Assembly: GCA_964593915.1 (NCBI GenBank)
Contig: CAZQLB010000001.1
Coordinates: forward strand, 1-32,734
Length of the DNA stretch: 32,734 nucleotides
Direction of reading: 5' to 3'
DNA from: an uncultured Pseudobdellovibrionaceae bacterium
GTDB lineage: Bacteria > Pseudomonadota > Alphaproteobacteria > Micavibrionales > Micavibrionaceae
Below are positions 2,461-22,928 of this stretch, in pieces. Position 1 is the stretch's first letter; the number at the start of each line of letters is the position of its first letter. The translations under genes were made by a program, and so were the position numbers. The notes beneath the pieces are model-generated. The model was given only the letters and a program-made list of their open reading frames with translations. It searched no databases and was not told the DNA's origin.

Positions 2461-5400
2461 TTAGAAGCGGTAACCCGCGCGAACCATCCCGGTGTGGGCG
2501 GTGTAATCCGATTTAATGCTGAAGTCATAGTCGGCTTTAACTTGCCAGTTGTTGGCAGAGTAGAAGTCAACGCCTGCGCCCACATTAAATGTGCTGCGTG
2601 CAGGATCTGCCCCTTGAGTGTCAAACGTGGTACCTGTGGAACCAACGAAGTTTGATGTGACTTCCAGGTTGTCGCCAATTGCATCGTAGCTATAGCCAAC
2701 GCGTACAACGGGTTCAACTTTGGAACCATCTTCGTTCATCATGGACCATTTTGCATCCAAGCCCAGACCCAGTTCCAGAGCATCCATATCGCTGTCACCA
2801 ACGGTCAGGAGAGCGCCTGTTCCTGTTTCTGTATAACCATCAGCACTGTAGTGCCAGTAGTTTGCCGAAACGTTCGGGGTCAATGTCAGACCATCTGCAC
2901 CCACATCATATCCGCGGCCAACTTCAGCACGTGCATTCCACAGGCTGGAGTCATAGTCGGCGTTTTGTGTGGTTGCGGACGTTGCATGACGGGTCATGTC
3001 ATTGCTGTTCCATGCGTAGGACGCAACACCTTCAACATAAGCATTGCTGCCGATGTCATAGTCGCCATACACGGACACTTGGTAGCTGTCCACATCTGTT
3101 TCAGCATTTGCCGCATTGTCGCTATCGACATTGGTCATACCGTAGCTGAGTGCCGCACCGGCGGTCCCTTTGCCATCAGCAACTTCCATGTCGGAACCGA
3201 TCGCTACACCAACGGTGTTTGAATCATATCCGGCAACGCTGTCACGTTCGTCTTGGTTTGCAACGCCACCAAAGCCTTGAAGCCAAACACTGTTTGGTAG
3301 TTCATCCGCCGCAGCGCCCATACCGCGTACGCCAGCCAAACGGCCAGAGATCACGTTCGATGCACCGGAAGCCACGGATGTCGCCGCAGAGACAGCACCC
3401 ATATCAACGGTTGGCGATACCGCTTCCAGGACTTCGTTTGCAGCAGCTTGTGTTGTCGCATCGTTCAAGAGACCTTGAACAGCATCAACCGCAGCCACAC
3501 CTGTGTCATCAATCGAAGCCAAAGCAGTTGCTATCGCATCGTTGTTTGCGTTGGTCCCAATCGAAGCGGCCGAAGCACGTGTCGCAATCAGGTAAGCATC
3601 GTTGGCTGAACCAGAAACTGTTGCGTTCGAACCATCTGTGATCACAAAGCTCAGGACATAGGAGTCATCCGTTACTGTGAAATCATCGGTTGTCGCATCA
3701 AGACCGCCAACACTGCCCGTACCATCAACCACTTTAAAGTAGTCGTTGGTTGCAATGAAACCGGATCCAGTTTCAACACGAACAGCAATCGTTGAACCTG
3801 TCAGATCAGCCGCACCGCCGGAAACGGTCAAAAGACCTTGTCCAAGCGATCCATCCGATCCACCAGCCACACCGAAGCTATAGGTACCTGTTGATGCAAC
3901 GTGCGTTGCAACTGTCAGACCTTTGTCAGCATCGATTTTAACTGTACCGGCGTTGGTTAATGCGCCGCCGTTGGTTACATCAGCGCCATCCAGATGCAGC
4001 GTACCGCCGCTGTTTACAGCCAAAGCTGCTGCGCCGGTTGTAACCGCATGGTTAACGGTAAATGTACCGCCGCTGGCAACCGTAATTGCCGCTGTACCAC
4101 CCGTGGCATCAAATGTGCCGCCGGTTGTGAACGCATCATCGATAGAAACGGTGTTTGTACCCGCTTCCAAATCAATCGTACCGGTTACGGAACCACCAGA
4201 GAGCGTCAGGGTATCGTTACCCGCGCCCATCGCAATGTTACCGGCAACGGCGGTTGTGCCATCCAATTTCAGCAACTGCGCGTTTGCACCAGATGTGATA
4301 TCACCTGTTACAGTAACGTTATTTAATGTGAATGTACCGGTTTGTGCCGTTGCACTCAAATAAATCGCGTTGTTGGTTGCCCCAGATGCCGTGTTGGCAA
4401 TGGTACCACCCGTGATTGTTGTATCAACAAGGTCAACTGCACCGACGGTGATTGTACCTTCTGTTGATGTGACGTTCGCCGATGTAAACGTACCGCTTGT
4501 GTTGGTGATGGTGTTTGGTGATGTTGTGCTTCCCAAAACCAAAGCTTCACCTGTGGTCGCCGAAACGGTGCCCGAGTTGGTGAAGGTTGTTAATGTACCG
4601 GATACGTTAATCGCGTCACCCGTTGTCGTAGAAACCGTACCGGAGTTGGTCAGGGTTGTCACTGTGCCAGATGCATCAATGGTTGTTCCTGTTGTTCCTG
4701 AAACGGTGCCCGAGTTGGTGAAGGTTGTTAATGTACCAGCTGCCACAACACCTTTACCTGTGGTCGCCGCAATGGTGCCCGAGTTGGTTAAGGTGGTCAG
4801 TGTGTCACCAGAAGTTACATCAATTGCATTACCACTGGTTGTACGAACGGTACCCGAGTTGGTAATCGATGTTGTTGTACCAGCAAGATCCAAATCGATC
4901 GCATCGCCTGTATGGCTTGTCGAACCGATTGTCCCTGTGTTGGTAATGGTTGCGGTTGCCGCGTTGACATCAAGAGCAATACCTGATCCAGAATCACCGC
5001 CGGTAATTGTACCCGCGTTTGTTAATGTTACGGATGCACCATCCAAACGGATACCAGCCCCGTCTGTACCCGCTGCACCAGCTGTACCGGAACCACCTGT
5101 ACCCGCTGCACCACCAGCACCCCCGGTTACGGTTACGCCCGAACCAATGGTGATCGTTGCGGTCGCACCGTCAACGTCAATACCATCGCCCCCAGCACCC
5201 CCGTCACGGTTGTTTGCTGTTCCAACGGATGCACCACCGTCGCCCCCAGCACCCCCGGTTACGGCCGATCCACTGGTCAGTGAAACGGTGTTGTTGTCAG
5301 AAATGAGGTCAATAGCAGCACCCCCGGCACCAGCTGTACCCCCTTGAAGGTTATCGTTACCGCCTGTTTCGTTTGCGTCGCCACCGTCGCCCCCGGCACC

Positions 5401-5952
5401 CCCGGTAAAGTCACCAGCGCCTGTTACGCGGCCATAGTTGGCATCAACATAGGCAGCCGATCCCCCGGCACCCCCGGCACCCCCAATTGCACCGTCAGCG
5501 TCGCCATCGGAACCATCAGAACCGTCGCCACCAGCGCCCCCAACTGCGGATGCTGTGCTATTCAGCAAAATGGTTGGATACGCGCCTGATGTACCATCCT
5601 GAGCAGATGGGAAGTTAATACCGTGGCCACCAGCGCCCCCAGCTTCCCCATCATCCATCGTTGTATCAACGCCCCCAGCGGCCCCGGCACCCCCGGTAAC
5701 GGCCACACCGTTCACGGTAATGTCGATTGCAGAGCCACCAAATTGAATACCGTCATCCCCGGCACCGCCAGCTGTATCAGCAGCAGCAGCAGAGGCGGCG
5801 TCACCTGTTTTCGCGGTTGTATAGGTTGTGTCCGCTGCCGGTGTTGCGGCGTCGGCAGCATGTGCGACGTTCACGCTGAAAGCACCCATCAGGGCGCCAA
5901 CGGCGACAATCGCAGAGCCTGTTAATAATGTCGATTTGAAATTGAGTTTCAT
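2461..5952 (-). CDS. autotransporter (type Va) outer-membrane protein, 1163 aa, with repetitive beta-helical passenger domain
   Basis: The best start is the ATG at 5950-5952, preceded by AAGGAG. Sec signal peptide MKLNFKSTLLTGSAIVAVGALMGAFSVNVAHA|AD. Gly-rich and T-x-T-N-S-G-T repeat passenger. The C-terminal ~275 aa (nt 2464-3288) have alternating beta-strand character and end in the barrel signature ...GMVRAGYRF. The 61 in-frame codons upstream (to 6135) lack an RBS or signal peptide and are taken as an ORF-track artefact. Confidence 0.9.
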   Translation of the reverse strand: MKLNFKSTLLTGSAIVAVGALMGAFSVNVAHAADAATPAADTTYTTAKTGDAASAAAADTAGGAGDDGIQFGGSAIDITVNGVAVTGGAGAAGGVDTTMDDGEAGGAGGHGINFPSAQDGTSGAYPTILLNSTASAVGGAGGDGSDGSDGDADGAIGGAGGAGGSAAYVDANYGRVTGAGDFTGGAGGDGGDANETGGNDNLQGGTAGAGGAAIDLISDNNTVSLTSGSAVTGGAGGDGGASVGTANNRDGGAGGDGIDVDGATATITIGSGVTVTGGAGGAAGTGGSGTAGAAGTDGAGIRLDGASVTLTNAGTITGGDSGSGIALDVNAATATITNTGTIGSTSHTGDAIDLDLAGTTTSITNSGTVRTTSGNAIDVTSGDTLTTLTNSGTIAATTGKGVVAAGTLTTFTNSGTVSGTTGTTIDASGTVTTLTNSGTVSTTTGDAINVSGTLTTFTNSGTVSATTGEALVLGSTTSPNTITNTSGTFTSANVTSTEGTITVGAVDLVDTTITGGTIANTASGATNNAIYLSATAQTGTFTLNNVTVTGDITSGANAQLLKLDGTTAVAGNIAMGAGNDTLTLSGGSVTGTIDLEAGTNTVSIDDAFTTGGTFDATGGTAAITVASGGTFTVNHAVTTGAAALAVNSGGTLHLDGADVTNGGALTNAGTVKIDADKGLTVATHVASTGTYSFGVAGGSDGSLGQGLLTVSGGAADLTGSTIAVRVETGSGFIATNDYFKVVDGTGSVGGLDATTDDFTVTDDSYVLSFVITDGSNATVSGSANDAYLIATRASAASIGTNANNDAIATALASIDDTGVAAVDAVQGLLNDATTQAAANEVLEAVSPTVDMGAVSAATSVASGASNVISGRLAGVRGMGAAADELPNSVWLQGFGGVANQDERDSVAGYDSNTVGVAIGSDMEVADGKGTAGAALSYGMTNVDSDNAANAETDVDSYQVSVYGDYDIGSNAYVEGVASYAWNSNDMTRHATSATTQNADYDSSLWNARAEVGRGYDVGADGLTLTPNVSANYWHYSADGYTETGTGALLTVGDSDMDALELGLGLDAKWSMMNEDGSKVEPVVRVGYSYDAIGDNLEVTSNFVGSTGTTFDTQGADPARSTFNVGAGVDFYSANNWQVKADYDFSIKSDYTAHTGMVRAGYRF
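4513..5040 (-). repeat. in-frame tandem ~69-bp (23-aa) repeats encoding T(L/F)TN(S/T/A)GT beta-helix rungs
   Basis: Protein repeats TLTNSGTIAATTGKGVVAAGTLT / TFTNSGTVSGTTGTTIDASGTVT / TLTNSGTVSTTTGDAINVSGTLT / TFTNSGTVSATTGEALV..., plus more degenerate flanking units. At DNA level a perfect 38-bp duplicate (gaaacggtgcccgagttggtgaaggttgttaatgtacc) occurs at 4562-4599 and 4700-4737, 138 bp = 2 periods apart. Confidence 0.8.
5053..5775 (-). repeat. low-complexity Gly-rich coding repeats (GGAGG-x-G / GGAGGDGG motifs)
   Basis: GGAGG, GGAGGDGG and GGAGGAGG are reiterated through passenger residues ~60-300. The + strand shows the recurring motif cccc(c)(a/g)gcacccccgg (e.g. around 5117, 5241, 5391, 5462 and 5686). 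Confidence 0.7.
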
Positions 5953-6273
5953 AAGGGGTCTCCTTACCCATTTAGAAGTTTTGGAACATCTTTTGTTTTG
6001 AGGATGCGGCAAAAAGCCAAAGTCCCCCAAAACTTTGAAGCACGTTAAAGATACGTGAACCAAGATGATTCGCCAGAGGAAAAAGCAAACTCTATATAAT
6101 TTTCGCTTTTCGTGTGGCAAGAATATCACGCGCATTTTTATCGCAATTTATATCTGCATATACATGTGTGTTTCGTATTGATTTATCTTGATTGTGTTTG
6201 CTGTCCTCTTGACATCATCGTGCGTTCTCTGCAGTGTTATGCCTGCCTTTGTGCATTATAAGGAGTCGATCTC

Positions 6274-6645
6274 ATGGCGGCGGGTGATTTTCTGTCAAAT
6301 TATTTTCCTATTCTTGTGTTTATGGCTATTGCCGTTGGTATTTCTGGCGCGGCGGTGATCGCGTCTTTAATCGCGGGGCGTCAACGGCCAGATGCGCAAA
6401 AGCTTGCGGCCTATGAATGCGGCTTTGATGCTTTTGACGATGCGCGGTCCAAATTTGATGTGCGTTTTTATCTGGTGGCCATCCTTTTTATTATCTTTGA
6501 TCTGGAAATCGCGTTTTTGTTTCCCTGGGCCGTGACGCTTGGGACTATTGGGATGGCTGGTTTTTGGTCAATGATGATTTTCCTGGGTGTCTTGACGGTT
6601 GGATTTGTGTATGAATGGCGCAAGGGTGCCCTGGATTGGGAATAA
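6274..6645 (+). CDS. nuoA: NADH-quinone oxidoreductase subunit A
   Basis: 123 aa, 3 TM. Conserved YECGF motif ([34 protein letters not shown]). RBS AAGGAG at 6260-6265. First gene of the nuo string. Confidence 0.96.
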
Positions 6646-6660
6646 GAGATAGGTTTTATA

Positions 6661-7236
6661 ATGACACATGATCGCACCATTGAGCTGGCCCCGGCTGTAC
6701 CTTTTCAAACCTTGACGCCCCAGCAGCGGGCGGAAGGCGGGGATGTTCTGGCGGCCGCTATTGCAAAAACGACCGAAGAAAAAGGGTTTATGTTAACAAC
6801 GGCCGATGCCTTGTTTGACTGGGCCCGGACCGGATCGATGTGGCCAATGACGTTTGGGCTTGCGTGCTGCGCGGTTGAAATGATTCATGCTTATATGTCG
6901 CGGTATGACCTGGACCGTTTTGGAATCATTCCGCGCCCCAGTCCGCGCCAGTCAGATGTGATGATTGTTGCGGGGACGTTGACGAATAAAATGGCGCCTG
7001 CGCTGCGGCGGGTGTATGACCAGATGCCGGAACCTCGGTGGGTGATTTCCATGGGATCCTGTGCGAATGGCGGCGGATATTATCATTATTCATATTCTGT
7101 TGTGCGGGGGTGCGACCGGATCGTTCCGGTGGATATTTATGTGCCTGGATGCCCCCCAACGGCTGAGGCTTTGGTATATGGTATCCTCTTGCTTCAAAAG
7201 AAAATCGGGCGCGAAGACACGCGGATTGTGCGGTAA
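6661..7236 (+). CDS. nuoB: NADH-quinone oxidoreductase subunit B
   Basis: Cluster N2 ligand motifs [23 protein letters not shown] and VPGCPPT. Confidence 0.97.
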
Positions 7237-7239
7237 AAA

Positions 7240-7983
7240 ATGACGGAAAATACCATTCAAAAAACAGAAGACGTACAGCACGTACAGGGTGCAGAGGAGA
7301 GGGCTTCTCCTATGCCTTTGGAACGTATTGTGTCCCAAATTAACCAGGACCGTTCAAATGATATTATTGATTGCTTATGGTATAAGAATGAAGCTTCTTT
7401 TACCGTACGTGTCGATACTTTGATTGATTTTATGTCTTATTTGCGGGGTGAATCTGGGGGGGCTTTTGTTCAGCTGGTGGATCTGTGCGGATGTGATGAT
7501 CCTTCTTTAGAAAATAGATTTACAGTGGTCTATAACCTATTGTCCCTTAAGGAAAATGTACGTGTACGTGTCAAGGTGTACGTGTCTGAAAACCAGACTG
7601 TTCCTTCCGTTGTCAGCTTATTTAGCACAGCTGGGTGGTTTGAGCGCGAGGCGTACGATATGTATGGTATTGTGTTTGCCGGAAATGCTGATCTGCGCCG
7701 TATTCTGACCGATTATGGATTTGAAGGATACCCCCTGCGCAAGGATTTTCCGATGACCGGGTTTGTGGAACTGCATTATGATGATCTGCAAAAACGAGTG
7801 GTGTACGCGCCGGTTGAATTGCAACAGGCGTACAGATCGTTTGATCATGTCAGCCCGTGGGACGGGATGACGGACGTACAGCTTCCGGGCGATGAAAAGG
7901 CAACGAAACCAACCCGGGGATGGGTACCCGCGAATGCGGATGTGTCGGTGGATATCCCCTCCGAACACAAAAAACTTAAATAA
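7240..7983 (+). CDS. nuoC: NADH-quinone oxidoreductase subunit C
   Basis: WFEREAYDMYGIVFAGNADLRRILTDYGFEGYPLRKDFP signature, with the alphaproteobacterial-type C-terminal extension (LPGDEKA...). Confidence 0.96.
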   Translation: MTENTIQKTEDVQHVQGAEERASPMPLERIVSQINQDRSNDIIDCLWYKNEASFTVRVDTLIDFMSYLRGESGGAFVQLVDLCGCDDPSLENRFTVVYNLLSLKENVRVRVKVYVSENQTVPSVVSLFSTAGWFEREAYDMYGIVFAGNADLRRILTDYGFEGYPLRKDFPMTGFVELHYDDLQKRVVYAPVELQQAYRSFDHVSPWDGMTDVQLPGDEKATKPTRGWVPANADVSVDIPSEHKKLK

Positions 7984-7998
7984 GGCAGGGTTTTTGAC

Positions 7999-9219
7999 AT
8001 GTTTCTAGAAGAAAAAGTCGATTTTGATCAGACGAATTTGACGGATTCCGAAAAAATCCGCTCTTATATGCTGAATTTTGGGCCGCAGCACCCGGCTGCG
8101 CACGGTGTCCTTCGCTTGATCATGGAGATGGATGGTGAGGTTGTGGAACGTGCCGATCCCCATATCGGTCTTTTACATCGCGGAACCGAAAAACTTATTG
8201 AATCCAAAACGTACATGCAGGCATTGCCCTATTTTGATCGATTGGATTATGTCAGCCCGATGAATCAGGAACATTGCTTTGCGCTGGCGACTGAAAAATT
8301 GCTGGGTATCACGGCGCCCCGCCGTGCGCAGTATATTCGCGTTCTGTTCTGCGAACTGACCCGTATTTTGAACCACGTTCTGAATATAACGACCTTTGCG
8401 CTGGACGTTGGGGCGATCACGCCTGCCTTGTGGGGATTTGAGGAACGTGAAAAAGGGATGGAGTTTTATGATCGGGTCTGCGGCGCACGCCTGCATGCCA
8501 ATTATATCCGTCCCGGCGGCGTCCATCAGGATGTGCCCCAAGGACTGCTGGAGGATATGGCCGCCTGGACTGATTCGTTCCCCGCGTTTCTGGATGATCT
8601 GGATAATTTGCTGACCGATAACCGTATTTTCAAACAGCGCACGGTGGATATTGGCGTTGCAACCCCCGAAGAAGCGATGGACTGGGGATTTACGGGGCCG
8701 ATGCTGCGCGGATCGGGTGTGGCATGGGACTTGCGCCGGGCACAGCCGTATGACGTGTATGATGAACTGGAATTTGATATTCCGGTCGGTAAAACGGGCG
8801 ATTGCTATGCGCGCTATCTGGTCCGGATGGCCGAAATGCGTGAATCATTAAAAATCATGAAGCAATGTATTCAAAACATGCCGCAGGGTAATGTTATGAT
8901 TGATGATTTTAAGGTCGCGCCCCCCCCGCGTGCCGAGATGAAATCGTCGATGGAGGCCTTGATTCATCATTTTAAACTGTATACCGAAGGGGTGCACGTC
9001 CCCGCCGGCGAAACGTACACCGCCGTTGAAGCCCCAAAGGGGGAATTCGCGGTCTATTTGATGTCAGACGGCACAAATAAACCGTATCGTTGCCATATTC
9101 GCGCCCCGGGCTTTGCCCATTTACAGGCGTTGGATTTCTTGTCACGCGGGCATATGCTGGCCGACGCGGTGTCGATCATCGGATCCATGGATATTGTATT
9201 CGGGGAAATTGACCGGTAG
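7999..9219 (+). CDS. nuoD: NADH-quinone oxidoreductase subunit D
   Basis: [15 protein letters not shown] near the N-terminus, canonical C-terminus ...[11 protein letters not shown], 406 aa. Confidence 0.97.
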
Positions 9220-9238
9220 AAAGAGGCGATCAGGATAT

Positions 9239-9266
9239 TGTCATTCCCGCGAAAGCGGGAATCCAG
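9239..9266. repeat. left terminal inverted repeat / hairpin (tgtcATTCCCGCgaaaGCGGGAATccag)
   Basis: Read directly from the sequence. The internal 8-bp stem ATTCCCGC/GCGGGAAT has a GAAA loop. The reverse complement of 9561-9588 matches it at 27/28 positions; the only mismatch is in the loop. Confidence 0.9.
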
Positions 9267-9274
9267 AGTAAAAA

Positions 9275-9586
9275 ATGCTTGCTGCTGTTTATATTCTTGC
9301 CAATAAAAGAAATGGGACGCTTTATGTCGGGGTATCTTCAAATCTGGTGGGGCGAATCTGGCAGCATAAAAGGGGAGACATAGAAGGGTTTACCAAGAAA
9401 TACGGTGTAAAAATGCTGGTGTGGTATGAGGTGACAGACGATATTTATGCCGCTATAACCCGTGAGAAACAAATAAAAAAATGGAATCGTGGATGGAAAT
9501 TAGAACTGATAGAGAAAATGAATCCAGATTGGAAAGATTTGAGTGAAGATATAGGATTGACTGGATTCCCGCCTTCGCGGGAATGA
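9275..9586 (+). CDS. GIY-YIG nuclease family protein (short stand-alone, COG2827/UPF0213-like)
   Basis: AVYILANKRNGTLYVGVSSNLVGRIWQHKRG...FTKKYGVKMLVWYE...AITREKQIKKWNRGWKLELIE. This fits the GIY...YIG strand pair, the conserved Arg/His helix and the catalytic Glu region of the small GIY-YIG family. Confidence 0.85.
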   Translation: MLAAVYILANKRNGTLYVGVSSNLVGRIWQHKRGDIEGFTKKYGVKMLVWYEVTDDIYAAITREKQIKKWNRGWKLELIEKMNPDWKDLSEDIGLTGFPPSRE

Positions 9587-9588
9587 CA
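9561..9588. repeat. right terminal inverted repeat / hairpin (ctggATTCCCGCcttcGCGGGAATgaca)
   Basis: Inverted copy of 9239-9266. It encodes the GIY-YIG C-terminus (…GFPPSRE) and contains its TGA stop (9584-9586). Confidence 0.9.
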
Positions 9589-9610
9589 TATATGACCGAA
9601 TGAGGGAAAA

Positions 9611-10270
9611 ATGAAAAAACACGTTGATTTTGAAACCGCGCAGGTGCTGTATCCTGCCTTCGCCTTCCGGGATGCGAAAATGGTTGCTGATATTTTATCC
9701 CGTTATCCGGATGAACAGAAACGCTCGGCGATTATGCCCTTGCTGGATCTTGCTCAGCGTCAGGTCGCTGTGGATGGCGCGTCTGCGGCGCCTGTTCCCT
9801 TCGGCGGCTGGATCCCCCGTTCGGCCATGGATGAAATCGCCCGTATCGTAGAAGAACCTCCGGTGAAAGTATATGAAGTTGCCAGTTTTTACAGTATGTA
9901 TAATCTGGAACCTGTTGGAAAATATTTGATCCAGCTGTGTACAACCACCCCCTGTTGGCTGTGCAATGCCGGCGGTATTTTAAAGGCGTGCGAAGATCAT
10001 TTGGGTATTCATATTGGGGACACAACGGCGGATGGGTATTTCACGTTGATGGAGGTGGAATGCCTGGGGGCTTGTGTGAACGCGCCAATGGTTCAAATCA
10101 ATGACGATTATTACGAAGATTTAACCGCCGAAAATATTATTATTTTGCTGGATGATCTGCGGGCGGGGCGTCCTGTGTCTGTCGGATCTCAAAAGGGGCG
10201 GCGCGGATCTATGGCGATTACGGGGCCGACAACGCTGGCCGATCTGGCCCAGAAATCAAACGTGGCGTGA
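9611..10270 (+). CDS. nuoE: NADH-quinone oxidoreductase subunit E
   Basis: Thioredoxin-like 2Fe-2S subunit. Cys ligands in LCTTTPCWLC and VECLGACVNAP. RBS GAGGGA lies upstream. Confidence 0.96.
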   Translation: MKKHVDFETAQVLYPAFAFRDAKMVADILSRYPDEQKRSAIMPLLDLAQRQVAVDGASAAPVPFGGWIPRSAMDEIARIVEEPPVKVYEVASFYSMYNLEPVGKYLIQLCTTTPCWLCNAGGILKACEDHLGIHIGDTTADGYFTLMEVECLGACVNAPMVQINDDYYEDLTAENIIILLDDLRAGRPVSVGSQKGRRGSMAITGPTTLADLAQKSNVA

Positions 10271-10301
10271 TGAGGGATTGCGGCGGCGGGATTGATCCCT
10301 G

Positions 10302-10328
10302 AAAAAAGGCTGGTTGACCACAGGCCTT
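10302..10328 (-). terminator. weak intrinsic terminator candidate for the symporter-Nudix unit
   Basis: On the - strand, TAAGGCCTGTGGTCAACCAGCCTTTTTT: a 5-bp stem AAGGC/GCCTT (+ strand 10306-10310 / 10324-10328) followed by a T-run. It overlaps the Nudix stop codon. The stem is short, so confidence is low. Confidence 0.3.
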
Positions 10329-10818
10329 AGGCCGCATGATTTTTTAAAGGGAGCGGCGCGGCCAGGCGGCCCTTTTGTGCCAGACATTCGTTGATCGTGG
10401 ATGACAGCTGGTCTATTCCGCCCATATTTTGAATCAGATTTATAATCGGCAGAAATAAGTTATCCGGTAATTGCCGAAGATCAAACCATTCCCATGCATC
10501 GAATTTATCCGGTTCCATGCGTTTTGGAATGGTTCCTTTCGGGACGGTTGTGACATAAAAAAGAGTGATATAGTGCGTATCGTTTTCAGGAAAGAGATCG
10601 CTGGTTATACCCAGAAGATAGGGTGAAGGGATATCAATCCCTGTTTCTTCCTTTGTTTCTCGCTGGGCGGTACAGCTGGGATCCTCTCCGAATTCAACAT
10701 GCCCGCCAGGTATACCCCATAGCCCTTGCCCATGACGAGACAGGCGGTGACCCATCAGAATTTGGTTATCCGGGTCTACAAGGAAAACAGCTGCTCCAAC
10801 GAATGGGCGGTTTGTCAT
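10327..10818 (-). CDS. Nudix hydrolase
   Basis: Canonical Nudix box GX5EX7REUXEEXGU: GHVEFGEDPSCTAQRETKEETGI. The start overlaps the upstream symporter stop (ATGA at 10815-10818). Confidence 0.9.
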   Translation of the reverse strand: MTNRPFVGAAVFLVDPDNQILMGHRLSRHGQGLWGIPGGHVEFGEDPSCTAQRETKEETGIDIPSPYLLGITSDLFPENDTHYITLFYVTTVPKGTIPKRMEPDKFDAWEWFDLRQLPDNLFLPIINLIQNMGGIDQLSSTINECLAQKGRLAAPLPLKNHAA

Positions 10819-12365
10819 TCCTTTGTTCCTGCGGGTGCTGTGTGGGATCCTCCTTGGTCTACAAGGGCCGTATGGTCCGTGCCGTGATGGTGCCCGCCAC
10901 CGTGATGGTGGTGATGGTGATAATCACGTTTGCCGATATAGCCGCCAATAAGCATCCCGATAATCGCCATCCCAAGCCCGGCCAATTGGGGCGGAACGAT
11001 CAGTTCAGGCGACCCTTCGGGCAGATTATAGGCAAGGGATTGCAGGAAGACCCACGTGCTGACCCCCATGAGGATAGAGAGCGTAGCGCCGGCCGTATTC
11101 GCGCGTTTCCAATATACACCAAAGGCCAGCGGGACAAATGCGCCGCACAACGTTACCATATAGGCATTTTCAACCATTTCAAAAATGGTGACGCCTTCTT
11201 GTGTGCTGTAATAGCTGTAAACAAAGACAATGCATGCAAACCCGACAACTGTCGTACGCAGTAATTTTAAAAGGTGTTTATCGTCCATGTGCCGCAGCAT
11301 CGGTTTTAAGATGTTTTCAGCAAAAAGGGCCGATGGCGCAAGCAGAGTCCCGGATGCTGTTGACATAATGGCGGAGAGTAGGGCGCCAAAGAAGATTACC
11401 TGGGCATATATGGGCATGTGGTTCATGATAAAGCTGGGCAATATCAATTGGGTATCACCATCCGGGCCCATGTTTTGCGCAACCAACGAAGGGTCGATCA
11501 GCGTCGCCGAATAGGCAATAAAGATGGGAATAAAGGCAAAGACCAAATACAGTGATCCACCCAGAACAGATCCGCGCACGGCTGTTTTCTCATCCTTTGC
11601 GGACATGACGCGTTGGAACACGTCTTGCTGTGGTACGGATCCGAGGGCCATGGTCAAGAATCCCGCCGCAAAAACAAGAATAGAGGCCAGATCCATAGAG
11701 GGCCAGAAATCAAATTTGTCGGCTTCAACTGCGTGCTGGATCACCGCGCCGGCGCCTCCGTCCACCATGCCAGAAATCATGTAACAGATAAATAGCATAC
11801 CCGCGCAGATGATCAACATTTGGATAAAGTCGGTCAGGGCCACCGACCACATCCCCCCAAACATGGTATAGATCAGCACGACCGAGATACCAACCAACAT
11901 CCCCATCTCGCGCGAGATCATCCCATCCGATATCACGTTGAAAACAAGGCCAAGCGCCGCCACCTGGGCCGATACCCACCCCAGATAACTGATGCAAATC
12001 GCAATGGATACAAATACTTCTATCGTGCGGTTATACCGGCGACGGTAAAAATCCCCGATTGTCAGAAGATTCATTTTATAAAGATGCCGGGCAAAGAAAA
12101 CCCCTACGATGATCAAGCAGGCAGAGGCCCCGAACGGATCCGCGATAATCCCGCCCAGGTTTTCATCCAGAAAGGTTGATGAAGTTCCCAAAACGGTTTC
12201 GTACCCAAACCATGTAGCAAATACCGTTGCTGTTGTTATGTATAACGGAAGGGAGCGGCCAGCAACCACATAGTCTTTTGATGTTTTGACCCGCAATGCT
12301 GCGTAAAGGCCGATGGCAATAGACGCCAGAATATATAAAACGACAAAACCGATCAATGTGGACAT
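10815..12365 (-). CDS. sodium:solute symporter (SSS/SLC5) family transporter with His-rich C-terminal tail
   Basis: 516 aa with ~13 hydrophobic segments. SSS-type N-terminus (…DYVVAGRSLPLYITTATVFATWFGYETVLG…LLTIGDFYRRRY). The cytoplasmic tail is …RDYHHHHHHGGGHHHGTDH…. The substrate cannot be assigned from sequence alone. Confidence 0.85.
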   Translation of the reverse strand: MSTLIGFVVLYILASIAIGLYAALRVKTSKDYVVAGRSLPLYITTATVFATWFGYETVLGTSSTFLDENLGGIIADPFGASACLIIVGVFFARHLYKMNLLTIGDFYRRRYNRTIEVFVSIAICISYLGWVSAQVAALGLVFNVISDGMISREMGMLVGISVVLIYTMFGGMWSVALTDFIQMLIICAGMLFICYMISGMVDGGAGAVIQHAVEADKFDFWPSMDLASILVFAAGFLTMALGSVPQQDVFQRVMSAKDEKTAVRGSVLGGSLYLVFAFIPIFIAYSATLIDPSLVAQNMGPDGDTQLILPSFIMNHMPIYAQVIFFGALLSAIMSTASGTLLAPSALFAENILKPMLRHMDDKHLLKLLRTTVVGFACIVFVYSYYSTQEGVTIFEMVENAYMVTLCGAFVPLAFGVYWKRANTAGATLSILMGVSTWVFLQSLAYNLPEGSPELIVPPQLAGLGMAIIGMLIGGYIGKRDYHHHHHHGGGHHHGTDHTALVDQGGSHTAPAGTKE

Positions 12366-12403
12366 GTCTTTGGGCTGCGCTCCTGCCGCGTGATGTTTTT
12401 TGG

Positions 12404-12421
12404 CTTTTAAATATTTAAAAG
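12404..12421. promoter_or_regulatory. perfect 18-bp palindrome (candidate operator) upstream of the symporter gene
   Basis: CTTTTAAATATTTAAAAG is its own reverse complement. It lies 39 bp upstream of the symporter ATG (12365) in the divergent symporter/nuoF spacer. Confidence 0.35.
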
Positions 12422-12503
12422 GTGTTTATGTGTATAAATCTCCGTTTTTTATGATGACTGTGCCTGAAGATGAGTCAAGAAGATTGAGAAAAAGGGATAG
12501 GTT

Positions 12504-12521
12504 ATCAACAGGAATGTTGAT
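12504..12521. promoter_or_regulatory. 7-4-7 inverted repeat (candidate regulator site) in the symporter/nuoF divergent region
   Basis: ATCAACA-GGAA-TGTTGAT read directly. It lies ~140 bp from the symporter start and ~148 bp from the nuoF start. Confidence 0.3.
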
Positions 12522-12668
12522 TTATATTAACGTAATGCTTGTTTAAGGACGAGGCTTCTTATCATTTATTAAAACCGCATATTCCGTGCATCTCCCCCCT
12601 CGCTTTTTTTCTAAAATGGATTATCCTGCCTGTTAGATTGTTTTTTGCACGTGAGAGGATTTTGAACG

Positions 12669-13952
12669 ATGCTTGCGGATCAGGACCGGATTTTTACGAA
12701 TATTTATGGTTGGGGGTCGTCTGGCCTTGCTGGGGCCCGGTCCCGTGGGGACTGGGATGGGACCAAGGATATTATCGCAAAAGGTCGCGACTGGATCATT
12801 GATGAAATGAAAAAGTCCGGTATGCGGGGCCGGGGTGGCGCGGGCTTTCCCACCGGGATGAAATGGTCCTTTATGCCAAAGGAATCCGGCAAACCTCATT
12901 ACCTGGTGATCAACGCGGATGAATCAGAACCTGGAACGTGTAAAGACCGTGATATCCTGCGTCATGATCCGCATAAATTGATTGAAGGTGCCTTGATCGC
13001 TGGTTTCGCGATTGGTGCCCACCGGGCCTATATCTATATCCGGGGTGAGTTTTATAACGAAGGATCTGCCGTCGTAAATGCGATCCGCGAGGCGTATGAC
13101 GCGGGCCTGCTGGGTAAAAACGCGGCGGGGTCCGGATGGGATTTTGATGTTGTCCTGCATCGCGGGGCAGGGGCGTATATCTGCGGTGAAGAATCAGCCT
13201 TGATCGAAAGTATTGAGGGGAAAAAGGGCCAGCCCCGGAACAAGCCGCCCTTTCCCGCTGGTGCCGGGCTTTATTCATGTCCCACCACGGTGAATAATGT
13301 GGAAACGATCGCATCTGTCCCGACCATTATGCGGCGGGGCGGGAGCTGGTTCGCTGGCATTGGCCCTAATGAAAAGAATACGGGAACCAAGTTGTTTTGT
13401 ATTTCGGGTCACGTCAATAATCCCTGTAATGTTGAGGAAGCGATGGGAATTCCTATGCGCGAATTGATTGAAAAACATGCGGGCGGGGTGCGCGGCGGGT
13501 GGGATAATCTGCTGGCTGTGATTCCGGGGGGATCGTCCACCCCGCTTTTGCCCAAAGATTTGTGCGAAAAAGCGATGATGGATTTTGATTCTCTTAAGAC
13601 TCTGCAATCCTTGTTGGGGACCGCGGGTCTGATCGTGATGGATAAATCCACGGATATTATTTATGCGATTGCGCGGCTGTCGTTCTTTTACATGCATGAA
13701 AGCTGTGGGCAGTGTACGCCGTGCCGCGAGGGGACGGGGTGGATGTGGCGAATCATGCAGCGTATGGTCAAAGGCAATGCCACGATCGATGAAATTGATA
13801 CCCTTTTGGATATTTCAAAAGAGATTGAAGGGCATACAATCTGTGCGCACGGCGATGCATCGGGCTGGCCGATCCAGGGGTTGATGCGGCATTTCCGCCC
13901 TGTGGTTGAGCAGCGTATTTTAGATTACCGCAAAACGGCAAAGGCGGCGTAA
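12669..13952 (+). CDS. nuoF: NADH-quinone oxidoreductase subunit F
   Basis: N-terminus [21 protein letters not shown] motifs [10 protein letters not shown] and [11 protein letters not shown]3 cluster motif [22 protein letters not shown] lies upstream. Confidence 0.97.
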
Positions 13953-13958
13953 GAAATA

Positions 13959-14255
13959 ATGACAACCCCCAGTGAATCCATTTTGAATCGATTGCGTGCA
14001 TTAAAGCCCGCTTTGGCCGCGCGTGGAGTCACACGCCTGCGCGTTTTTGGATCGGTTGCACGCGGGGAAGCACGGGATGATAGTGATGTAGATTTGATTG
14101 TTGATTTCGATCAGAAACCAGATCTACTTGAATTTTCCGAACTTCGTTTGGATCTTATTGATCTTTTAGGGCGTGATGTCGATTTATTGACAGATGCGGC
14201 GATACACCCACGCATGCGGGTTGATATTCTGAATGAGGCCCGTGATGTCGAATAA
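13959..14255 (+). CDS. mntA: MNT-family nucleotidyltransferase, antitoxin of a HEPN/MNT (type VII) TA pair
   Basis: 98 aa. Minimal NTase motif FGSVARGEARDDSDVDLIVDF (GSx10-12DxD). It overlaps the downstream HEPN gene by 23 bp. Confidence 0.85.
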   Translation: MTTPSESILNRLRALKPALAARGVTRLRVFGSVARGEARDDSDVDLIVDFDQKPDLLEFSELRLDLIDLLGRDVDLLTDAAIHPRMRVDILNEARDVE

Positions 14256-14595
14256 AAAGAATTGGTATGCCAGGGTTGATGATATTCTAGAATCTATCTT
14301 GGTGATTGAAGAGAGTATTGATGGACTTAGTTTTGAGGACTTTAAATCAAATAGGGTTTTATTTTATGCTGTGTCGCGGGCTATTGAAATTATTGGCGAA
14401 GCAGCAAAAAATATCCCTGATGATGTCCTTGAAAAATACCCTGAAGGGATGTGGCGAGGGGTAAAGGGAATGCGTGATATTATTGCACATGAATATGCGC
14501 GATTAGATAAAGAGCTCATGTGGAATGTTGCTGTTCAGCGTATTCCAGATTTGAAACATACGATTTTGAAAATGATAAAAGATATAGGTTCCTAA
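14233..14595 (+). CDS. hepT: HepT-like HEPN (DUF86) RNase toxin
   Basis: 120 aa. HEPN Rx4HxY motif (MRDIIAHEYARLD) at the usual C-terminal-third position. Paired with the upstream MNT gene. Its stop TAA (14593-14595) directly abuts the nuoG ATG (14596). Confidence 0.85.
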   Translation: MRPVMSNKKNWYARVDDILESILVIEESIDGLSFEDFKSNRVLFYAVSRAIEIIGEAAKNIPDDVLEKYPEGMWRGVKGMRDIIAHEYARLDKELMWNVAVQRIPDLKHTILKMIKDIGS

Positions 14596-16638
14596 ATGCC
14601 CAAGTTAAAAATCAACAATACCGAAATCGAAGTTGCGCCGGGGACATCGATCCTACAGGCCGCAGAAATGCTGGGGATTGAAATTCCGCGTTTTTGTTAT
14701 CATGACAAGTTATCGGTCGCGGCAAATTGCCGGATGTGCTTGGTTGAGGTGAAGGGAGCGCCCAAACCGGTTGCGTCCTGTGCCCTTGCTTGCGGCGACA
14801 ATATGGAGGTGTATACAAAAACCCCCATGGCGGATAAGGCGCGCCGTGGTGTCATGGAAATGTTGCTGATCAATCACCCGCTGGATTGTCCCGTGTGCGA
14901 TCAGGGCGGCGAATGTGATCTTCAGGATCAGTCGGTCGCCTATGGTTTTGATCGATCCCGTTATCACGAATCAAAACGCGCGGTAAAGGACAAGGATATT
15001 GGCCCTCTGGTCAAAACCGTCATGACGCGGTGTATTCAGTGCACAAGATGCGTTCGGTTCTGTGATGAAATCGCGGGTACATCTGAACTCGGGTTGATGA
15101 ACCGGGGGGAAAACGTTGAAATTGGTCCATTTGTTGATCGTCCCGTGACAACGGAATTGTCTGGAAACTTGGTTGATATTTGTCCTGTTGGTGCCTTGAC
15201 GAATAAACCTTATGCCTTTAAGGCCCGTGCATGGGAAATCAAAAAGACAGACAGCGTTGATGTCATGGATGCGGTCGGGTCGAATATCCGTGTGGATAGC
15301 CGCGGGAATGAAGCCCTGCGCATTCTGCCTCGTCTTCACGAAGATATTAACGAGGAATGGATTGGGGATCGTTCGCGGTATGCTGTGGATGGATTGAAAT
15401 ATGCCCGTTTGGATACCCCGTATGTCCGTGATGCGGGGACGGGGGCCTTGGTTCCTGCTAGCTGGGATGATGCATTGGCCATGATTGCAAGCCGTATGTC
15501 GCAGACGACACCGGATAAAATTGCGGCTTTTGCCGGCGAACTGTGCGCTCTTGAAGAAATGGTTGCATTAAAAGACTTGATGGATCAGATGGGCGCGCAG
15601 CGCACGGAATGCCGCGTCAATGGCGAACAAATTGAAAATGGCCCGCGTGGCGGATATTTATTTAACACAACGATTGCCGGAATTGAACAAGCAGATGCTA
15701 TTCTCATCGTGGGGGCAAATCCTCGCCATGAGGCGACTATGGTGAATGCCCGTATCCGCAAAGCCTGGCTTGCGAAACATAAACGGTTACCGATCGGTGT
15801 TATCGGAACTGATACAGATTTAACATACGATATCGAACACATTTCGGCCGGGCCGGATGGAATTGATTCTCTGCTTTCTGGTACGCATCCTTTTTCTGCC
15901 GTTTTACGTGCGGCTAAAAACCCCATGATGATTGTGGGAATGGGGGCTTTAAGGCGCGTGGATGGTGTCCAGATTTTAAAACGCCTTTATGAATTGGCCG
16001 GGTCTTTTAATATGATTCGGGCGGATTGGAATGGGTGGAATATCCTGCATATAGCCGCGTCGATGGTGGGCGGTATGGATATTGGATTTACGTCTACACC
16101 ATTTGATATCTGTGAAATGGATGTTGTTTATTTGATGAATACGGATACACCCCATGTCGTGGACAGTATGCGTGACGATGCGTTTGTGGTGTATCAAGGA
16201 CATCATGGCGACCGAGGGGCTGCGCGTGCCGACGTGATTTTACCGGGCGCGGCCTATACCGAAAAAAATGGTATTTACGTCAATATGGAGGGCCGGGCCC
16301 AGCAGGCGCGTGCGGCTGTTCACCCCCCTGGCCTTGCCCGAGAGGACTGGAAAATTATTCGGGCGTTGTCTGGTGTGATGGGGTATCCATTGCCATATGA
16401 TGACCTGGCGCAGCTGCGTGCCCGTATGGCCCGCACATATATTCCTGTTTCTCATATGGGGGATGTTCGTGCAGCTGTTATGCCTCAATCGCTGGGCCGT
16501 TCTGGTACATCGTCGCGCAGTGATTTTATCAGTACAGTTCCCAATTATTATGATACAAATGTGATCACGCATGTTTCAAAAACAATGAAGGCATGTGTTG
16601 ATGCCTTTTTAAAATCCAACCACCGTCAGGCAGCGTAA
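14596..16638 (+). CDS. nuoG: NADH-quinone oxidoreductase subunit G
   Basis: 2Fe-2S motif ([18 protein letters not shown]) and 4Fe-4S motifs ([18 protein letters not shown]; [11 protein letters not shown]…CPVGAL). 680 aa. Confidence 0.97.
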
Positions 16639-16640
16639 AG

Positions 16641-17651
16641 ATGATGGAATTGATCAATTTATATGGGATGGACTTTGTTTGGACCCTTTTGCACATTGGG
16701 GCCATTGTTGGGTGCGTTTTGGGCGGCGTTGCTTATCTAACCTATGCGGAACGTAAAGTCCTGGGCGCGATGCAGCGTCGGCAGGGGCCGATGACCGTTG
16801 GTCCTTTCGGCTTGCTGCAACCGATTGCGGATGGTATCAAGTTACTTTCCAAAGAAACTATTTTACCGACGCAGGCGAATAAACCTGTCTTTGTTTTGGC
16901 GCCGATGATGCTTTTTTCTTTGGCGCTTCTGGCGTGGGCGGTCATTCCCGTGGATGCAAAGGTTGTTTTGGCCAATATTAACGTCGGAATTCTGTATCTG
17001 TTTGCGATCTCGTCCATGGGTGTATATGGCGTTATCATGGCCGGATGGGCCAGTAATTCGCGTTATGCTTTCCTTGGCGGTATGCGTTCGGCATCCCAGA
17101 TGGTGAGTTACGAGGTGTCGATGGGCCTTGTGATTGTTTGTGTGTTGTTGACCACGGGTACATTGAACCTGACCGGGATTATTGAGGCTGATCGTCCGTG
17201 GTGGATGGTGGCTTTGCTGTTTCCCATGTTCATTGTGTTTTTGGTGTCGATTTTGGCCGAAACAAATCGTCCACCGTTTGATTTACCCGAAGGGGAATCG
17301 GAATTATCCGGCGGATTTATGGTTGAATATTCATCGATGACCTTTGCGCTGTTTTTCCTTGGGGAATACGCCAATATGATTTTGATGAGTGCGATGACCA
17401 CTGTTCTCTTTCTGGGCGGCTGGCATGTTCCATTCGGGATTGAGGGATTATCGTTTGTGCCTGGATGGATTTGGTTTATCCTAAAAATCTGCGCCGTGCT
17501 GTTTTTCTTTATCTGGGCGCGCGCGTCATTTCCGCGTTATCGCTATGACCAATTGATGCGTTTGGGATGGAAGGTGTTCTTGCCGCTGTCGCTGATATGG
17601 ATCGTGGTCGTTGCCGGAACCCTTTTATATATGGATGCGTTGCCGAAGTAA
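16641..17651 (+). CDS. nuoH: NADH-quinone oxidoreductase subunit H
   Basis: Polytopic membrane protein with [26 protein letters not shown] and [16 protein letters not shown] signatures. Confidence 0.97.
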
Positions 17652-17663
17652 GTGAGATAAATT

Positions 17664-18152
17664 ATGTCCATAAAACAAGTTGCTAAATCGTTTTTACTGT
17701 ATGAAATCGTCAAGGGTATGGCCTTGACCCTCAAGTACATGTTTTTTGTGCCGCGTGTGACAATTAACTATCCATACGAAAAGGGGCCGATTAGTCCTCG
17801 TTTCCGGGGTGAACATGCCCTGCGCCGCTATCCCAATGGGGAAGAACGCTGTATTGCCTGCAAACTGTGCGAAGCGATTTGCCCCGCCCAGGCCATTACG
17901 ATTGAGGCCGAACCTAGGGACGATGGATCCCGCCGCACCACGCGCTATGACATTGATATGACCAAATGTATTTATTGCGGTCTGTGCCAGGAAGCGTGTC
18001 CGGTGGATGCCATTGTCGAAGGCCCCAATTTTGAATACGCAACCGAAACCCGGGCCGAATTATTTTATAACAAGGAAAAATTGCTGGAAAATGGCGATCG
18101 GTGGGAAGCCCAAATCGCCCGTAATATCGCAAGCGATGCGAGGTATCGATAA
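17664..18152 (+). CDS. nuoI: NADH-quinone oxidoreductase subunit I
   Basis: Two ferredoxin-type 4Fe-4S motifs, [12 protein letters not shown] and [12 protein letters not shown]. Confidence 0.97.
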
Positions 18153-18154
18153 TC

Positions 18155-18781
18155 ATGATCACTGCTTTGTCTTTTTATCTTTTTGCGCTTGTGCTGACGT
18201 TATCCGCCGGCATGGTGATTACCGCAAAGAACCCGGTGCATTCGGTTTTATTCCTGATCCTTGCGTTTTTTAACGCGGCTGGTCTTTTTGTTTTAATGGG
18301 CGCGGAATTTATCGCCATGCTGCTTGTGATTGTTTATGTCGGCGCAGTGGCGGTGCTGTTCCTGTTCGTTGTGATGATGCTGGATATCAATTTTGCCCAG
18401 CTGCGGCATGGCGCCCTGCGTTACGCGCCAATTGGTATGGTTTTGGGCGGTGTTTTGCTTGCTGAACTTGTTTTGCTGTATGCGGGAATGCCGGGCGCGG
18501 ATGCGCGCCCCTCGTCCCACGATCCGGCTTTGGCCATTCCGTCCCCTGATATGACCGAGAATACAAAGGCGCTGGGCCATGTTCTGTATACCCATTATAT
18601 ATTGCCGTTTCAGGTCTCGGGCCTTATTTTGCTGACCGCGATGATTGGGGCGATTGTCTTGACGCTGCGTCAACGTCCGGGTGTACGGCGTCAGCGCGTG
18701 GCAGATCAAAATGCGCGCAAGGCATCCGATGTATTAGAAATGAAATCAATTCCATCCGGAGTAGGTATAAAAAATGTTTGA
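18155..18781 (+). CDS. nuoJ: NADH-quinone oxidoreductase subunit J
   Basis: 208-aa hydrophobic protein in the conserved position between nuoI and nuoK. NuoJ-like N-terminus (…[52 protein letters not shown]). Confidence 0.94.
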
Positions 18782-19085
18782 TATTGGATTGACCCATTAC
18801 CTGACCCTGGCCGCGATTTTGTTTACGCTGGGCGTTTTTGGCATTTTTTTGAATCGCAAAAATGTGATTGTCATTTTGATGTCGATTGAATTGATGCTTT
18901 TGGCGGTGAATATCAACTTTGTGGCCTTTTCCTCTTTTATGGGGGATATTGCAGGGCAGGTTTTCACGATGTTTATTCTGACCGTTGCGGCAGCTGAAGC
19001 CGCAATTGGTTTGGCTATTCTGGTTGTATTTTTCCGTAACCGCGGATCAATCGCCGTTGACGATATATCTGAGATGCGAGGGTAA
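18774..19085 (+). CDS. nuoK: NADH-quinone oxidoreductase subunit K
   Basis: 103 aa, 3 TM (…[19 protein letters not shown]…[17 protein letters not shown]). Overlaps nuoJ by 8 bp. Confidence 0.95.
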
Positions 19086-19090
19086 AGACA

Positions 19091-21169: not shown

Positions 21170-21238
21170 AAAGGTTTTGTCGTTTTGGGTGGGGAAGGTC
21201 TTATCTCCGCTGTGATACGTTAATAAAAGGATTGAGAT

Positions 21239-22867: not shown

Positions 22868-22928
22868 TGTAGTGTGGTTTTGGATTTAAATAGCGTGCTA
22901 ATTTTTTTAGAAAGAGACGAATATAAAA

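Follow-up and report, generated by a model that had tools for sequence, protein, structure and literature searches.

Complex I clusters are usually regarded as textbook compact operons, and a locus that departs from this at three consecutive junctions raises the question of what occupies them and how the occupants persist. We analyzed such a locus in a stretch of 32,734 nucleotides (the window) from an uncultured Pseudobdellovibrionaceae bacterium (GCA_964593915.1, contig CAZQLB010000001.1, positions 1-32,734, forward strand), which contains the 14-gene complex I cluster, nuoA to nuoN, of a Micavibrio-like alphaproteobacterium. Based on open reading frame (ORF) coordinates, the A/B, B/C and C/D spacers are 15, 3 and 15 bp and those from G/H through M/N are -8 to 69 bp, against 391, 2398 and 643 bp for D/E, E/F and F/G. 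Every spacing figure in a preliminary description of this DNA, which reported compact nuoA-D and nuoG-N blocks around the three wide junctions, was reproduced exactly. The gene identities it gave for the inserts (a GIY-YIG nuclease with inverted repeats, an antisense symporter plus Nudix pair, and an in-sense MntA/HepT pair) were confirmed by Pfam and NCBIfam profile searches of the window proteins and by a repeat search.

Taken jointly, the observations are probably best explained by a permissive zone from B/C to I/J that in the window holds an Ssn-type nuclease unit, an old symporter/Nudix pair and a MntA/HepT toxin-antitoxin pair, with recent cassette replacement. Each part belongs to a known family. 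What is new is a clade-wide, position-restricted insertion zone, the recurrence in it of Ssn and nucleotidyltransferase/HEPN modules, and a divergence signature resembling that of exchange.

Junction occupancy in relatives

The 14 nuo genes were mapped on 80 loci and each junction was measured, with the window, its sister species (L104) and a further relative (L108) added to the counts; a junction of at least 250 bp was scored as occupied. Occupied junctions number 49 of 132 in Micavibrio-like genomes and 10 of 719 in the rest of the alphaproteobacterial set (Azospirillum, Reyranella, Parvibaculum, Kordiimonas, Acetobacteraceae and others, with no Rhodobacterales clusters among them). The corresponding Fisher P of 7e-34 ignores phylogenetic non-independence and is descriptive only, since the lineages are not independent. 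All occupied junctions in the clade fall within B/C-I/J (49/97): 3/11 at B/C, 3/12 at C/D, 9/13 at D/E, 11/17 at E/F, 12/13 at F/G, 5/12 at G/H, 3/11 at H/I and 3/8 at I/J. A/B (0/10) and J/K to M/N (0/25) are uninterrupted, 0/35 combined. In this clade the B/C-I/J junctions tolerate both gene insertion and turnover.

The cargo differs from genome to genome and consists mostly of ordinary genes. Four genomes carry purL and purQ with methyltransferases at F/G, as antisense blocks of 4-8 kb. Other cargo includes folK, a chemoreceptor (MCP) with a PAS protein, an M16 peptidase, HTTM plus DCC1, TerD, a CheZ-like protein, solute-binding proteins and many orphan ORFs. About one third of the inserted ORFs (21/61) are antisense, and antisense multi-gene blocks reach 8 kb (L012). 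A MazG-like (PRA-PH) gene of about 135 amino acids occurs at G/H in four genomes, with pairwise E-values of 1e-56 to 1e-65.

Selfish-type modules recur among this cargo. Ssn units are found at D/E in L007, at E/F in L012 and at both C/D and D/E in L108, and pairs of a nucleotidyltransferase with an NTase_sub_bind protein at C/D in L003 and F/G in L108, the latter differing from MntA/HepT; three different nucleotidyltransferase/HEPN-type pairs occur at C/D and F/G in the clade. A PD-(D/E)XK_3 protein (L004, G/H) and a DUF559 protein (L108, B/C) are further modules of this type. The L108 cluster (258-20318) has at least six occupied nuo junctions, including seven co-oriented genes between nuoB and nuoC.

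Because most of the cargo in the clade is ordinary, permissive junctions look like the general rule, rather than targeting by selfish genes. The preliminary description had proposed that the junctions tolerate insertions, as a landing pad, and this holds for the clade: when the junctions were aligned with those of relatives, they were variably empty or occupied with different cargo, and the same three inserts were not order-wide. Its emphasis on selfish or defense-type cargo fits the window, where two of the three cassettes (the Ssn nuclease unit and the MntA/HepT pair) are of selfish type, and fits the recurrence of such modules, but does not extend to a rule for the clade. The insertion zone lacks any integrase, tRNA or att-like repeat, and a tRNA/tmRNA search was negative.

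The antisense purL genes (FGAM synthase) between nuoF and nuoG lie at 11638-15430 in L006, 6509-10241 in L008, 12329-16045 in L011 and 14188-17091 in L012. A purQ gene stands beside purL in three of the four (it was not recovered in L012); SpoU and S-adenosylmethionine (SAM) methyltransferases accompany them in L008, and SpoU in L012. The MazG-like gene (L004, 13068-13490; L006, 17550-17957; L008, 14300-14707; L011, 18818-19228) appears to have been inserted and then fixed within a single sub-clade. The B/C genes of L108 include Dus, a 2-hydroxyacid dehydrogenase, a Na/Ala symporter and the DUF559 gene. We considered whether the small ORFs at F/G descend from an ancestral F/G reading frame and rejected this: among Micavibrio-like genomes they are mutually unrelated and have no Pfam match.

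The nuclease unit between nuoD and nuoE

The D/E junction contains a gene annotated as ssnA-like that encodes a single-domain GIY-YIG nuclease of 103 amino acids (9275-9586, plus strand; PF01541, 2.4e-16, residues 4-75, with no second domain in Pfam). It is flanked by inverted-repeat arms of 28 nt each that are 96% complementary; the chance expectation for such a match around this gene is none. The left arm is TGTCATTCCCGCGAAAGCGGGAATCCAG (9239-9266, plus strand), and the right arm (9561-9588, minus strand) is inverted with respect to it and encodes the final codons and stop of ssnA. Each arm is also a hairpin in its own right, ATTCCCGC-GAAA-GCGGGAAT, that folds as single-stranded DNA at -9 kcal/mol (z about -5; -4.8 for the left arm). 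Both match the published NTS consensus CGTCATTCCCGCGMAVGCGGGAATCYRG at 27/28 positions, as well as the published degenerate SRM pattern. The hairpin stem shows compensatory changes among the units compared, with pair 7-22 present as T-A, C-G, G-C or A-T, all four Watson-Crick types.

In the members tested, single-domain GIY-YIG Ssn proteins cut single-stranded DNA beside their cognate hairpin, and most of their genes are laid out NTS-ssnA-NTS (Chenal et al., Nat Commun 2025, PMC11893778). Since the arms fit the NTS and SRM descriptions and the repeat-gene-repeat layout is that of Chenal et al. (2025), we predict that the D/E cassette is an NTS-ssnA-NTS unit of the Ssn family and so of a known kind. 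It shares with that family a single GIY-YIG domain of about 100 amino acids (<150), a gene placed between inverted 28-nt hairpins, and repeats that are near-identical across phyla. It differs in copy number and setting: Neisseria genomes have hundreds of dispersed NTS copies, whereas the 32.7 kb window has two, both at the gene, and the unit lies inside an essential respiratory operon; the word "operon" is absent from the main text of Chenal et al. (2025).

Homologues in several phyla share 65-77% identity with the protein, and the Ssn-unit proteins compared are 54-76% identical. Within the clade, the ssnA genes at nuo C/D, D/E and E/F are 54-66% identical to one another, and the D/E copy of L108 is 76% identical to that of the window. 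The repeat-gene-repeat layout also occurs at homologues in L012, L108 (two copies), L095 (a Thermodesulfobacteriota metagenome-assembled genome, MAG), L096 and L115; in L110 and L111 the left arm was found by SRM scan and the right arm only by reading the sequence, and in L007 only a right arm is present. Nine distinct insertion sites were examined, and at every one the unit runs in the same direction as the genes on either side; no target-site duplications or direct repeats are found beside any of nine NTS-bounded units. The absence of target-site duplications, the right arm that encodes the end of the ORF and the uniform co-orientation all go beyond the text of Chenal et al. (2025). An insertion sequence or transposon was rejected for this unit: inverted repeats are present, but there is no transposase domain in Pfam and there are no flanking direct repeats. 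A search of solved structures by sequence with the GIY-YIG protein gave only a spurious WD40 match.

The gene is co-oriented with nuoD and nuoE, with no obvious terminator, and for this reason we predict that it is transcribed by read-through from the nuo promoter.

Several further NTS arrangements were seen. Co-oriented NTS-bounded ssnA units in unrelated phyla lie at 3962-4323 in L095, 3966-4332 in L096, 2464-2870 in L110 (whose right arm carries a further hairpin within its loop), 2465-2850 in L111 and 2466-2830 in L115; the L115 unit is inside a liv-type ABC transporter operon, between ATPase and permease genes. The two L108 copies of ssnA, at C/D and D/E, are only 55% identical to each other, and the same locus has a solitary NTS upstream of nuoA (142-169). 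An Acetobacteraceae MAG (L069) has two back-to-back NTS doublets with no ssnA between the arms, one upstream of nuoA and one in the nuoA/nuoB junction (5978-6059 and 6833-6912), which resemble REPIN-like non-autonomous copies.

The toxin-antitoxin pair between nuoF and nuoG

The F/G junction appears to be filled by a MntA/HepT-type pair with intact motifs. A minimal nucleotidyltransferase gene, mntA (13959-14255, plus strand; 98 amino acids, motif GSVARGEARDDSDVDL; PF01909, 7.6e-15, and PF18765), starts 6 bp past the nuoF stop codon. It is overlapped by hepT (14233-14595, plus strand; PF01934, 1.4e-26), a gene for a putative HEPN RNase toxin of 116-120 amino acids with the R-x4-H motif RDIIAHEY, and the TAA stop of hepT directly abuts the nuoG ATG. 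There is no room for a promoter of the pair's own between nuoF and nuoG, so we predict that mntA and hepT are co-transcribed and translationally coupled with nuoF and nuoG.

In type VII HepT/MntA systems, the HEPN RNase is neutralized through AMPylation by the minimal nucleotidyltransferase; SO_3166/SO_3165 of Shewanella oneidensis is an example. The position presumably AMPylated in that system is a tyrosine, and HepT of the window has a matching one in RDIIAHEY, two residues after the histidine of the R-x4-H motif. Shared with the type VII systems are the gene order (antitoxin first, overlapping the toxin gene), GS-x9-D-x-D in MntA, R-x4-H plus the tyrosine in HepT, and small proteins, here 98 and 116-120 amino acids. 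The window pair differs in having no space for its own autoregulated promoter.

By sequence, MntA matches a solved minimal nucleotidyltransferase (PDB 1wot) at 1e-18, and HepT matches no solved structure. Among PADLOC models, MntA matches only the candidate family PDC-S09 (4e-27) and the Nudix protein of the neighboring junction matches candidate PDC-S07; no PADLOC model matches HepT, the GIY-YIG protein or the symporter. HepT of the sister species is 98-99% identical; beyond the genus, even the closest HepT reaches no more than 50% identity. An exact look-up of the 120-amino-acid HepT returned no record, with the 116-amino-acid form (later start codon) present in the collection. A more distant congener, L109, has the order nuoF-mntA-hepT-solute-binding protein-nuoG, with MntA and HepT 81-82% identical to those of the window.

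The symporter and Nudix genes between nuoE and nuoF

The E/F junction holds two antisense genes. One encodes a Nudix hydrolase of 163 amino acids (10327-10818, minus strand; PF00293, 2.4e-24) that is convergent with nuoE and has an intact Nudix box in its translation; the other encodes a sodium:solute symporter (SSF) of 516 amino acids (10815-12365, minus strand; PF00474, 7.8e-37) and overlaps the Nudix start by 4 bp. Orthologues of the SSF that are 55-63% identical occupy E/F on the minus strand in L001 and on the plus strand in L002 and L003, and occupy F/G in L012 and L015; the L108 orthologue is 75% identical. In total, eight related lineages besides the window have an SSF orthologue at E/F or F/G. 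Nudix genes occur at D/E in L002 and L003, and both the sister species and L108 also have the minus-strand Nudix-SSF pair at E/F.

Based on its native-like composition at third codon positions (GC3), a synonymous divergence (dS) at or above that of the nuo genes, and its linkage to nuoE/F in eight lineages, we conclude that the SSF/Nudix pair is an old resident near nuoE/F that has been inverted and shuffled, not recent cargo, and that it was inherited vertically. The preliminary description had considered each of the three junctions to carry a different foreign cassette. That view finds support for the Ssn unit and MntA/HepT, which have foreign-like GC3 and low dS, and has to be given up for SSF/Nudix.

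The antisense pair makes it probable that the cluster forms two transcription units, nuoA-E and nuoF-N. The SSF and nuoF genes diverge from an AT-rich spacer (12366-12668, GC about 0.43), which may contain divergent promoters. A promoter and terminator consensus scan gave counts no higher than in shuffled sequence and so cannot define transcription units. An Rfam scan of 9000-15000, covering a riboswitch for the symporter and other RNAs, gave no match at E up to 1.

In the sister species the E/F junction has two more orphan ORFs, at 4726-5190 (154 amino acids, plus strand) and 7496-8344 (282 amino acids, minus strand), at sites that correspond to window positions 10271-10326 and 12528-12566. 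They are absent from the window without a remnant, which indicates that this junction is still changing at the species level; the final ~100 bp upstream of nuoF show conservation between the two species. L108 also has orphan ORFs beside its Nudix-SSF pair, of which there is no trace in the window. The C-terminus of the SSF (10815-10900) is a His-rich tail, DYHHHHHHGGGHHHGTDH.

Divergence and selection relative to the sister species

We compared the window with the sister species gene by gene for the ratio of nonsynonymous to synonymous divergence (dN/dS), dS and GC3. The sister species, about 89% identical in DNA, is represented in several JGI, ENA and Logan assemblies (contigs up to 1.27 Mb) and shares the cluster. 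The 14 nuo genes have dN/dS of 0.01-0.15, dS of 0.43-0.79 and GC3 of 0.46-0.58. For ssnA the values are 0.11, 0.115 and 0.39, for mntA 0.03, 0.169 and 0.38, and for hepT 0.05, 0.138 and 0.32; SSF has 0.03, 0.96 and 0.58, and Nudix 0.14, 1.24 and 0.45. Given dN/dS of 0.03-0.14, the five inserted genes are all under purifying selection and are kept by it.

The synonymous divergence of ssnA, mntA and hepT is 3-5 times below that of the flanking nuo genes. Across the nuo genes, all 349 sliding windows of 100 codons have dS of at least 0.24 (median 0.62). In nucleotide identity the Ssn unit (350 bp, 97.1%) and the toxin-antitoxin cassette (643 bp, 96.4%) stand out against flanks of 87-90% (binomial P 3e-9 and 4e-13), and at F/G the identity falls abruptly at the nuoG start.

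All three cassettes are common to the window and the sister species, and more distant congeners have mntA-hepT (L109) and the D/E ssnA (L108); by this distribution the three are placed as genus-level residents, not fresh arrivals. The combination of low dS and low GC3 in ssnA, mntA and hepT suggests recent exchange between lineages. Because more distant congeners already carry mntA-hepT at F/G and ssnA at D/E, this would be recent replacement rather than first acquisition, and we propose that homologous recombination within the conserved flanking nuo genes replaced both cassettes between sister lineages.

It is plausible that the Ssn unit and the MntA/HepT pair hitch-hike on host transcription. 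This would fit two cassettes that are laid out co-oriented and without promoters of their own, Ssn units that are uniformly co-oriented in other places, and the signature of low divergence. The cause put forward in the preliminary description, an operon that is strongly transcribed and hard to delete, is a hypothesis. A stronger version is possible, and we offer it only tentatively since we consider it doubtful: a long-lived insertion zone within the operon in which selfish cassettes persist on host transcription and are re-imported across species with the nuo genes as homology arms. If true, small promoter-less selfish genes would use conserved operons for both expression and spread, essential conserved operons would be vehicles that carry selfish genes between species, and Ssn units, which are little understood outside Neisseria, would have a natural context.

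Alternative explanations

Several points weigh against the explanation favored here. The high-identity tract at F/G fades gradually leftward, with the last ~150 bp of nuoF also high (94-96%), and the low dS of the cassettes could have another cause. No near-identical copies of the Ssn or MntA/HepT cassette were found outside the genus, so any exchange would be between sister lineages only. The Fisher tests take no account of shared ancestry among the loci, and the excess at nuo junctions is measured against the nuo clusters of other alphaproteobacteria; a ProS-based control for the nuoN-birA-rnj-proS-lolED string in metagenome contigs gave best matches of 44-58% identity, without synteny. MntA scores 46.2 bits with MntA_antitoxin and HepT 33 bits with HepT_toxin; these NCBIfam equivalog models are the closest for each, and both scores are under the 60-bit cutoffs. 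The Ssn assignment comes from size, domain and flanking repeats, not directly from CDD cd10448 membership, and the transcription units and the nuclease and toxin activities are deduced from family membership and gene spacing.

The nuo cluster may not be special at all. If Micavibrio-like genomes are loose and rearranging overall, insertions would survive wherever translational coupling is unbroken, and this is the alternative we take most seriously, as possible though unlikely. It would account for the mostly ordinary cargo of relatives (purL/purQ, folK, SpoU/SAM methyltransferases, M16 peptidase, MCP/PAS, solute-binding proteins, Dus), for the 21 antisense ORFs among 61, and for an SSF that shifts between E/F and F/G and changes strand. 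It does not lead one to expect that A/B and J/K-M/N are interrupted in 0/35 cases, or that two selfish module types recur independently, with ssnA copies only 54-66% identical and three different nucleotidyltransferase/HEPN-type pairs. The birA-rnj-DUF1467-proS-lolE-lolD string of the window is also compact. A less probable account concerns the low dS of ssnA and mntA-hepT, which would reflect constraint or mutational bias (AT-rich codons, overlapping signals, structured DNA) and not transfer. The cassettes are indeed AT-rich at third positions, mntA and hepT overlap, hepT holds the nuoG ribosome-binding region, and donors outside the genus are lacking; yet the low divergence extends over about 350 and 640 bp and takes in the D/E spacers as well as codons that do not overlap, no 100-codon nuo window comes near the cassette dS, and identity drops sharply where nuoG starts.

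That the inserts are anciently fixed accessory genes with a function in complex I, comparable to the unidentified reading frames in Paracoccus and Rhodobacter, we regard as very improbable. Purifying selection on all three cassettes in the sister species, the tie of the SSF to nuoE/F in eight further lineages and the MazG-like gene fixed at G/H in four genomes would suit such a role. Against it, occupancy and content vary within the clade and other alphaproteobacterial orders are compact; with junctions variably empty or occupied among relatives and empty in other orders, the inserts are not order-wide fixed subunits. The profile searches in Pfam and NCBIfam matched no insert to a known complex I subunit or assembly factor, and Ssn nucleases, a HEPN RNase with its nucleotidyltransferase, Nudix and SSF proteins are none of these; homologous Ssn units and a HepT pair homologous to that of the window also occur in unrelated contexts in other phyla. 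Least credible of all, to the point of being negligible, is that metagenome misassembly or binning stitched the cassettes into nuo. The window apparently comes from a metagenome-derived contig, but its gene order and exact junctions recur in over 20 contigs, which come from different samples assembled in JGI, ENA and Logan data and reach lengths such as 147 kb, 437 kb and 1.27 Mb. The nuclease-repeat layout in particular is not an assembly artefact, as independent JGI, ENA and Logan assemblies of the sister species have the same architecture.

Comparison with known insertion systems

Since the 1990s, alphaproteobacterial nuo clusters have been known to contain extra reading frames. Unidentified reading frames were reportedly described in the nqo/nuo cluster of Paracoccus denitrificans by Xu, Matsuno-Yagi and Yagi in 1993, and in that of Rhodobacter capsulatus by Dupuis and colleagues in 1998; a search of the open-access literature on these reading frames and on Micavibrio nuo organization gave nothing usable. 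The Paracoccus and Rhodobacter clusters share with the present one the placement of extra ORFs in the first two thirds of the cluster and a contiguous J-N block. The present zone differs in cargo that varies within a genus, antisense blocks up to 8 kb (L012) and identifiable selfish modules.

Integration hot spots and defense islands are accessory modules flanked by conserved core genes. As in those, the same core-gene junction here has different accessory or defense modules in related genomes: F/G contains MntA/HepT, a nucleotidyltransferase plus NTase_sub_bind pair, orphan ORFs or purL/purQ, depending on the genome. The zone differs from integration hot spots in lying within the cluster for one multi-subunit enzyme and in being without an integrase, tRNA or att-like repeat. 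One clade with up to six occupied junctions per cluster, in which nuoJ-N is never broken, provides a natural map of interruptible sites. It also places two recently characterized selfish modules inside an essential operon, both with a divergence signature that suggests exchange of cassettes between species.

Other features of the window

The nuo genes are all on the plus strand. The nuoA-D block (6274-9219) comprises nuoA (6274-6645), nuoB (6661-7236), nuoC (7240-7983) and nuoD (7999-9219), identified from ORFs and tblastn to relatives and, for nuoD, by PF00346 and NF004739. They are followed by nuoE (9611-10270; PF01257, 2.5e-52; NF005725), nuoF (12669-13952; NF010120, 794 bits) and nuoG (14596-16638; TIGR01973). 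The nuoG, H, I, J, K, L, M and N genes span 14596-24386 (ORFs and tblastn). The closest nuoF sequences in one-genome-per-species data, 76-84% identical, belong to MAGs that bear the label Micavibrio, Pseudobdellovibrionaceae or Bdellovibrionales. Apart from this, the window has a classical, tightly packed alphaproteobacterial string, nuoN-birA-RNase J-DUF1467-proS-lolE-lolD.

Upstream of nuoA the window encodes an autotransporter of 1224 amino acids (2461-6135, minus strand) that contains internal repeats about 70% identical around 4544-4884. At this position, gene length and content differ among otherwise near-identical contigs of the sister species.

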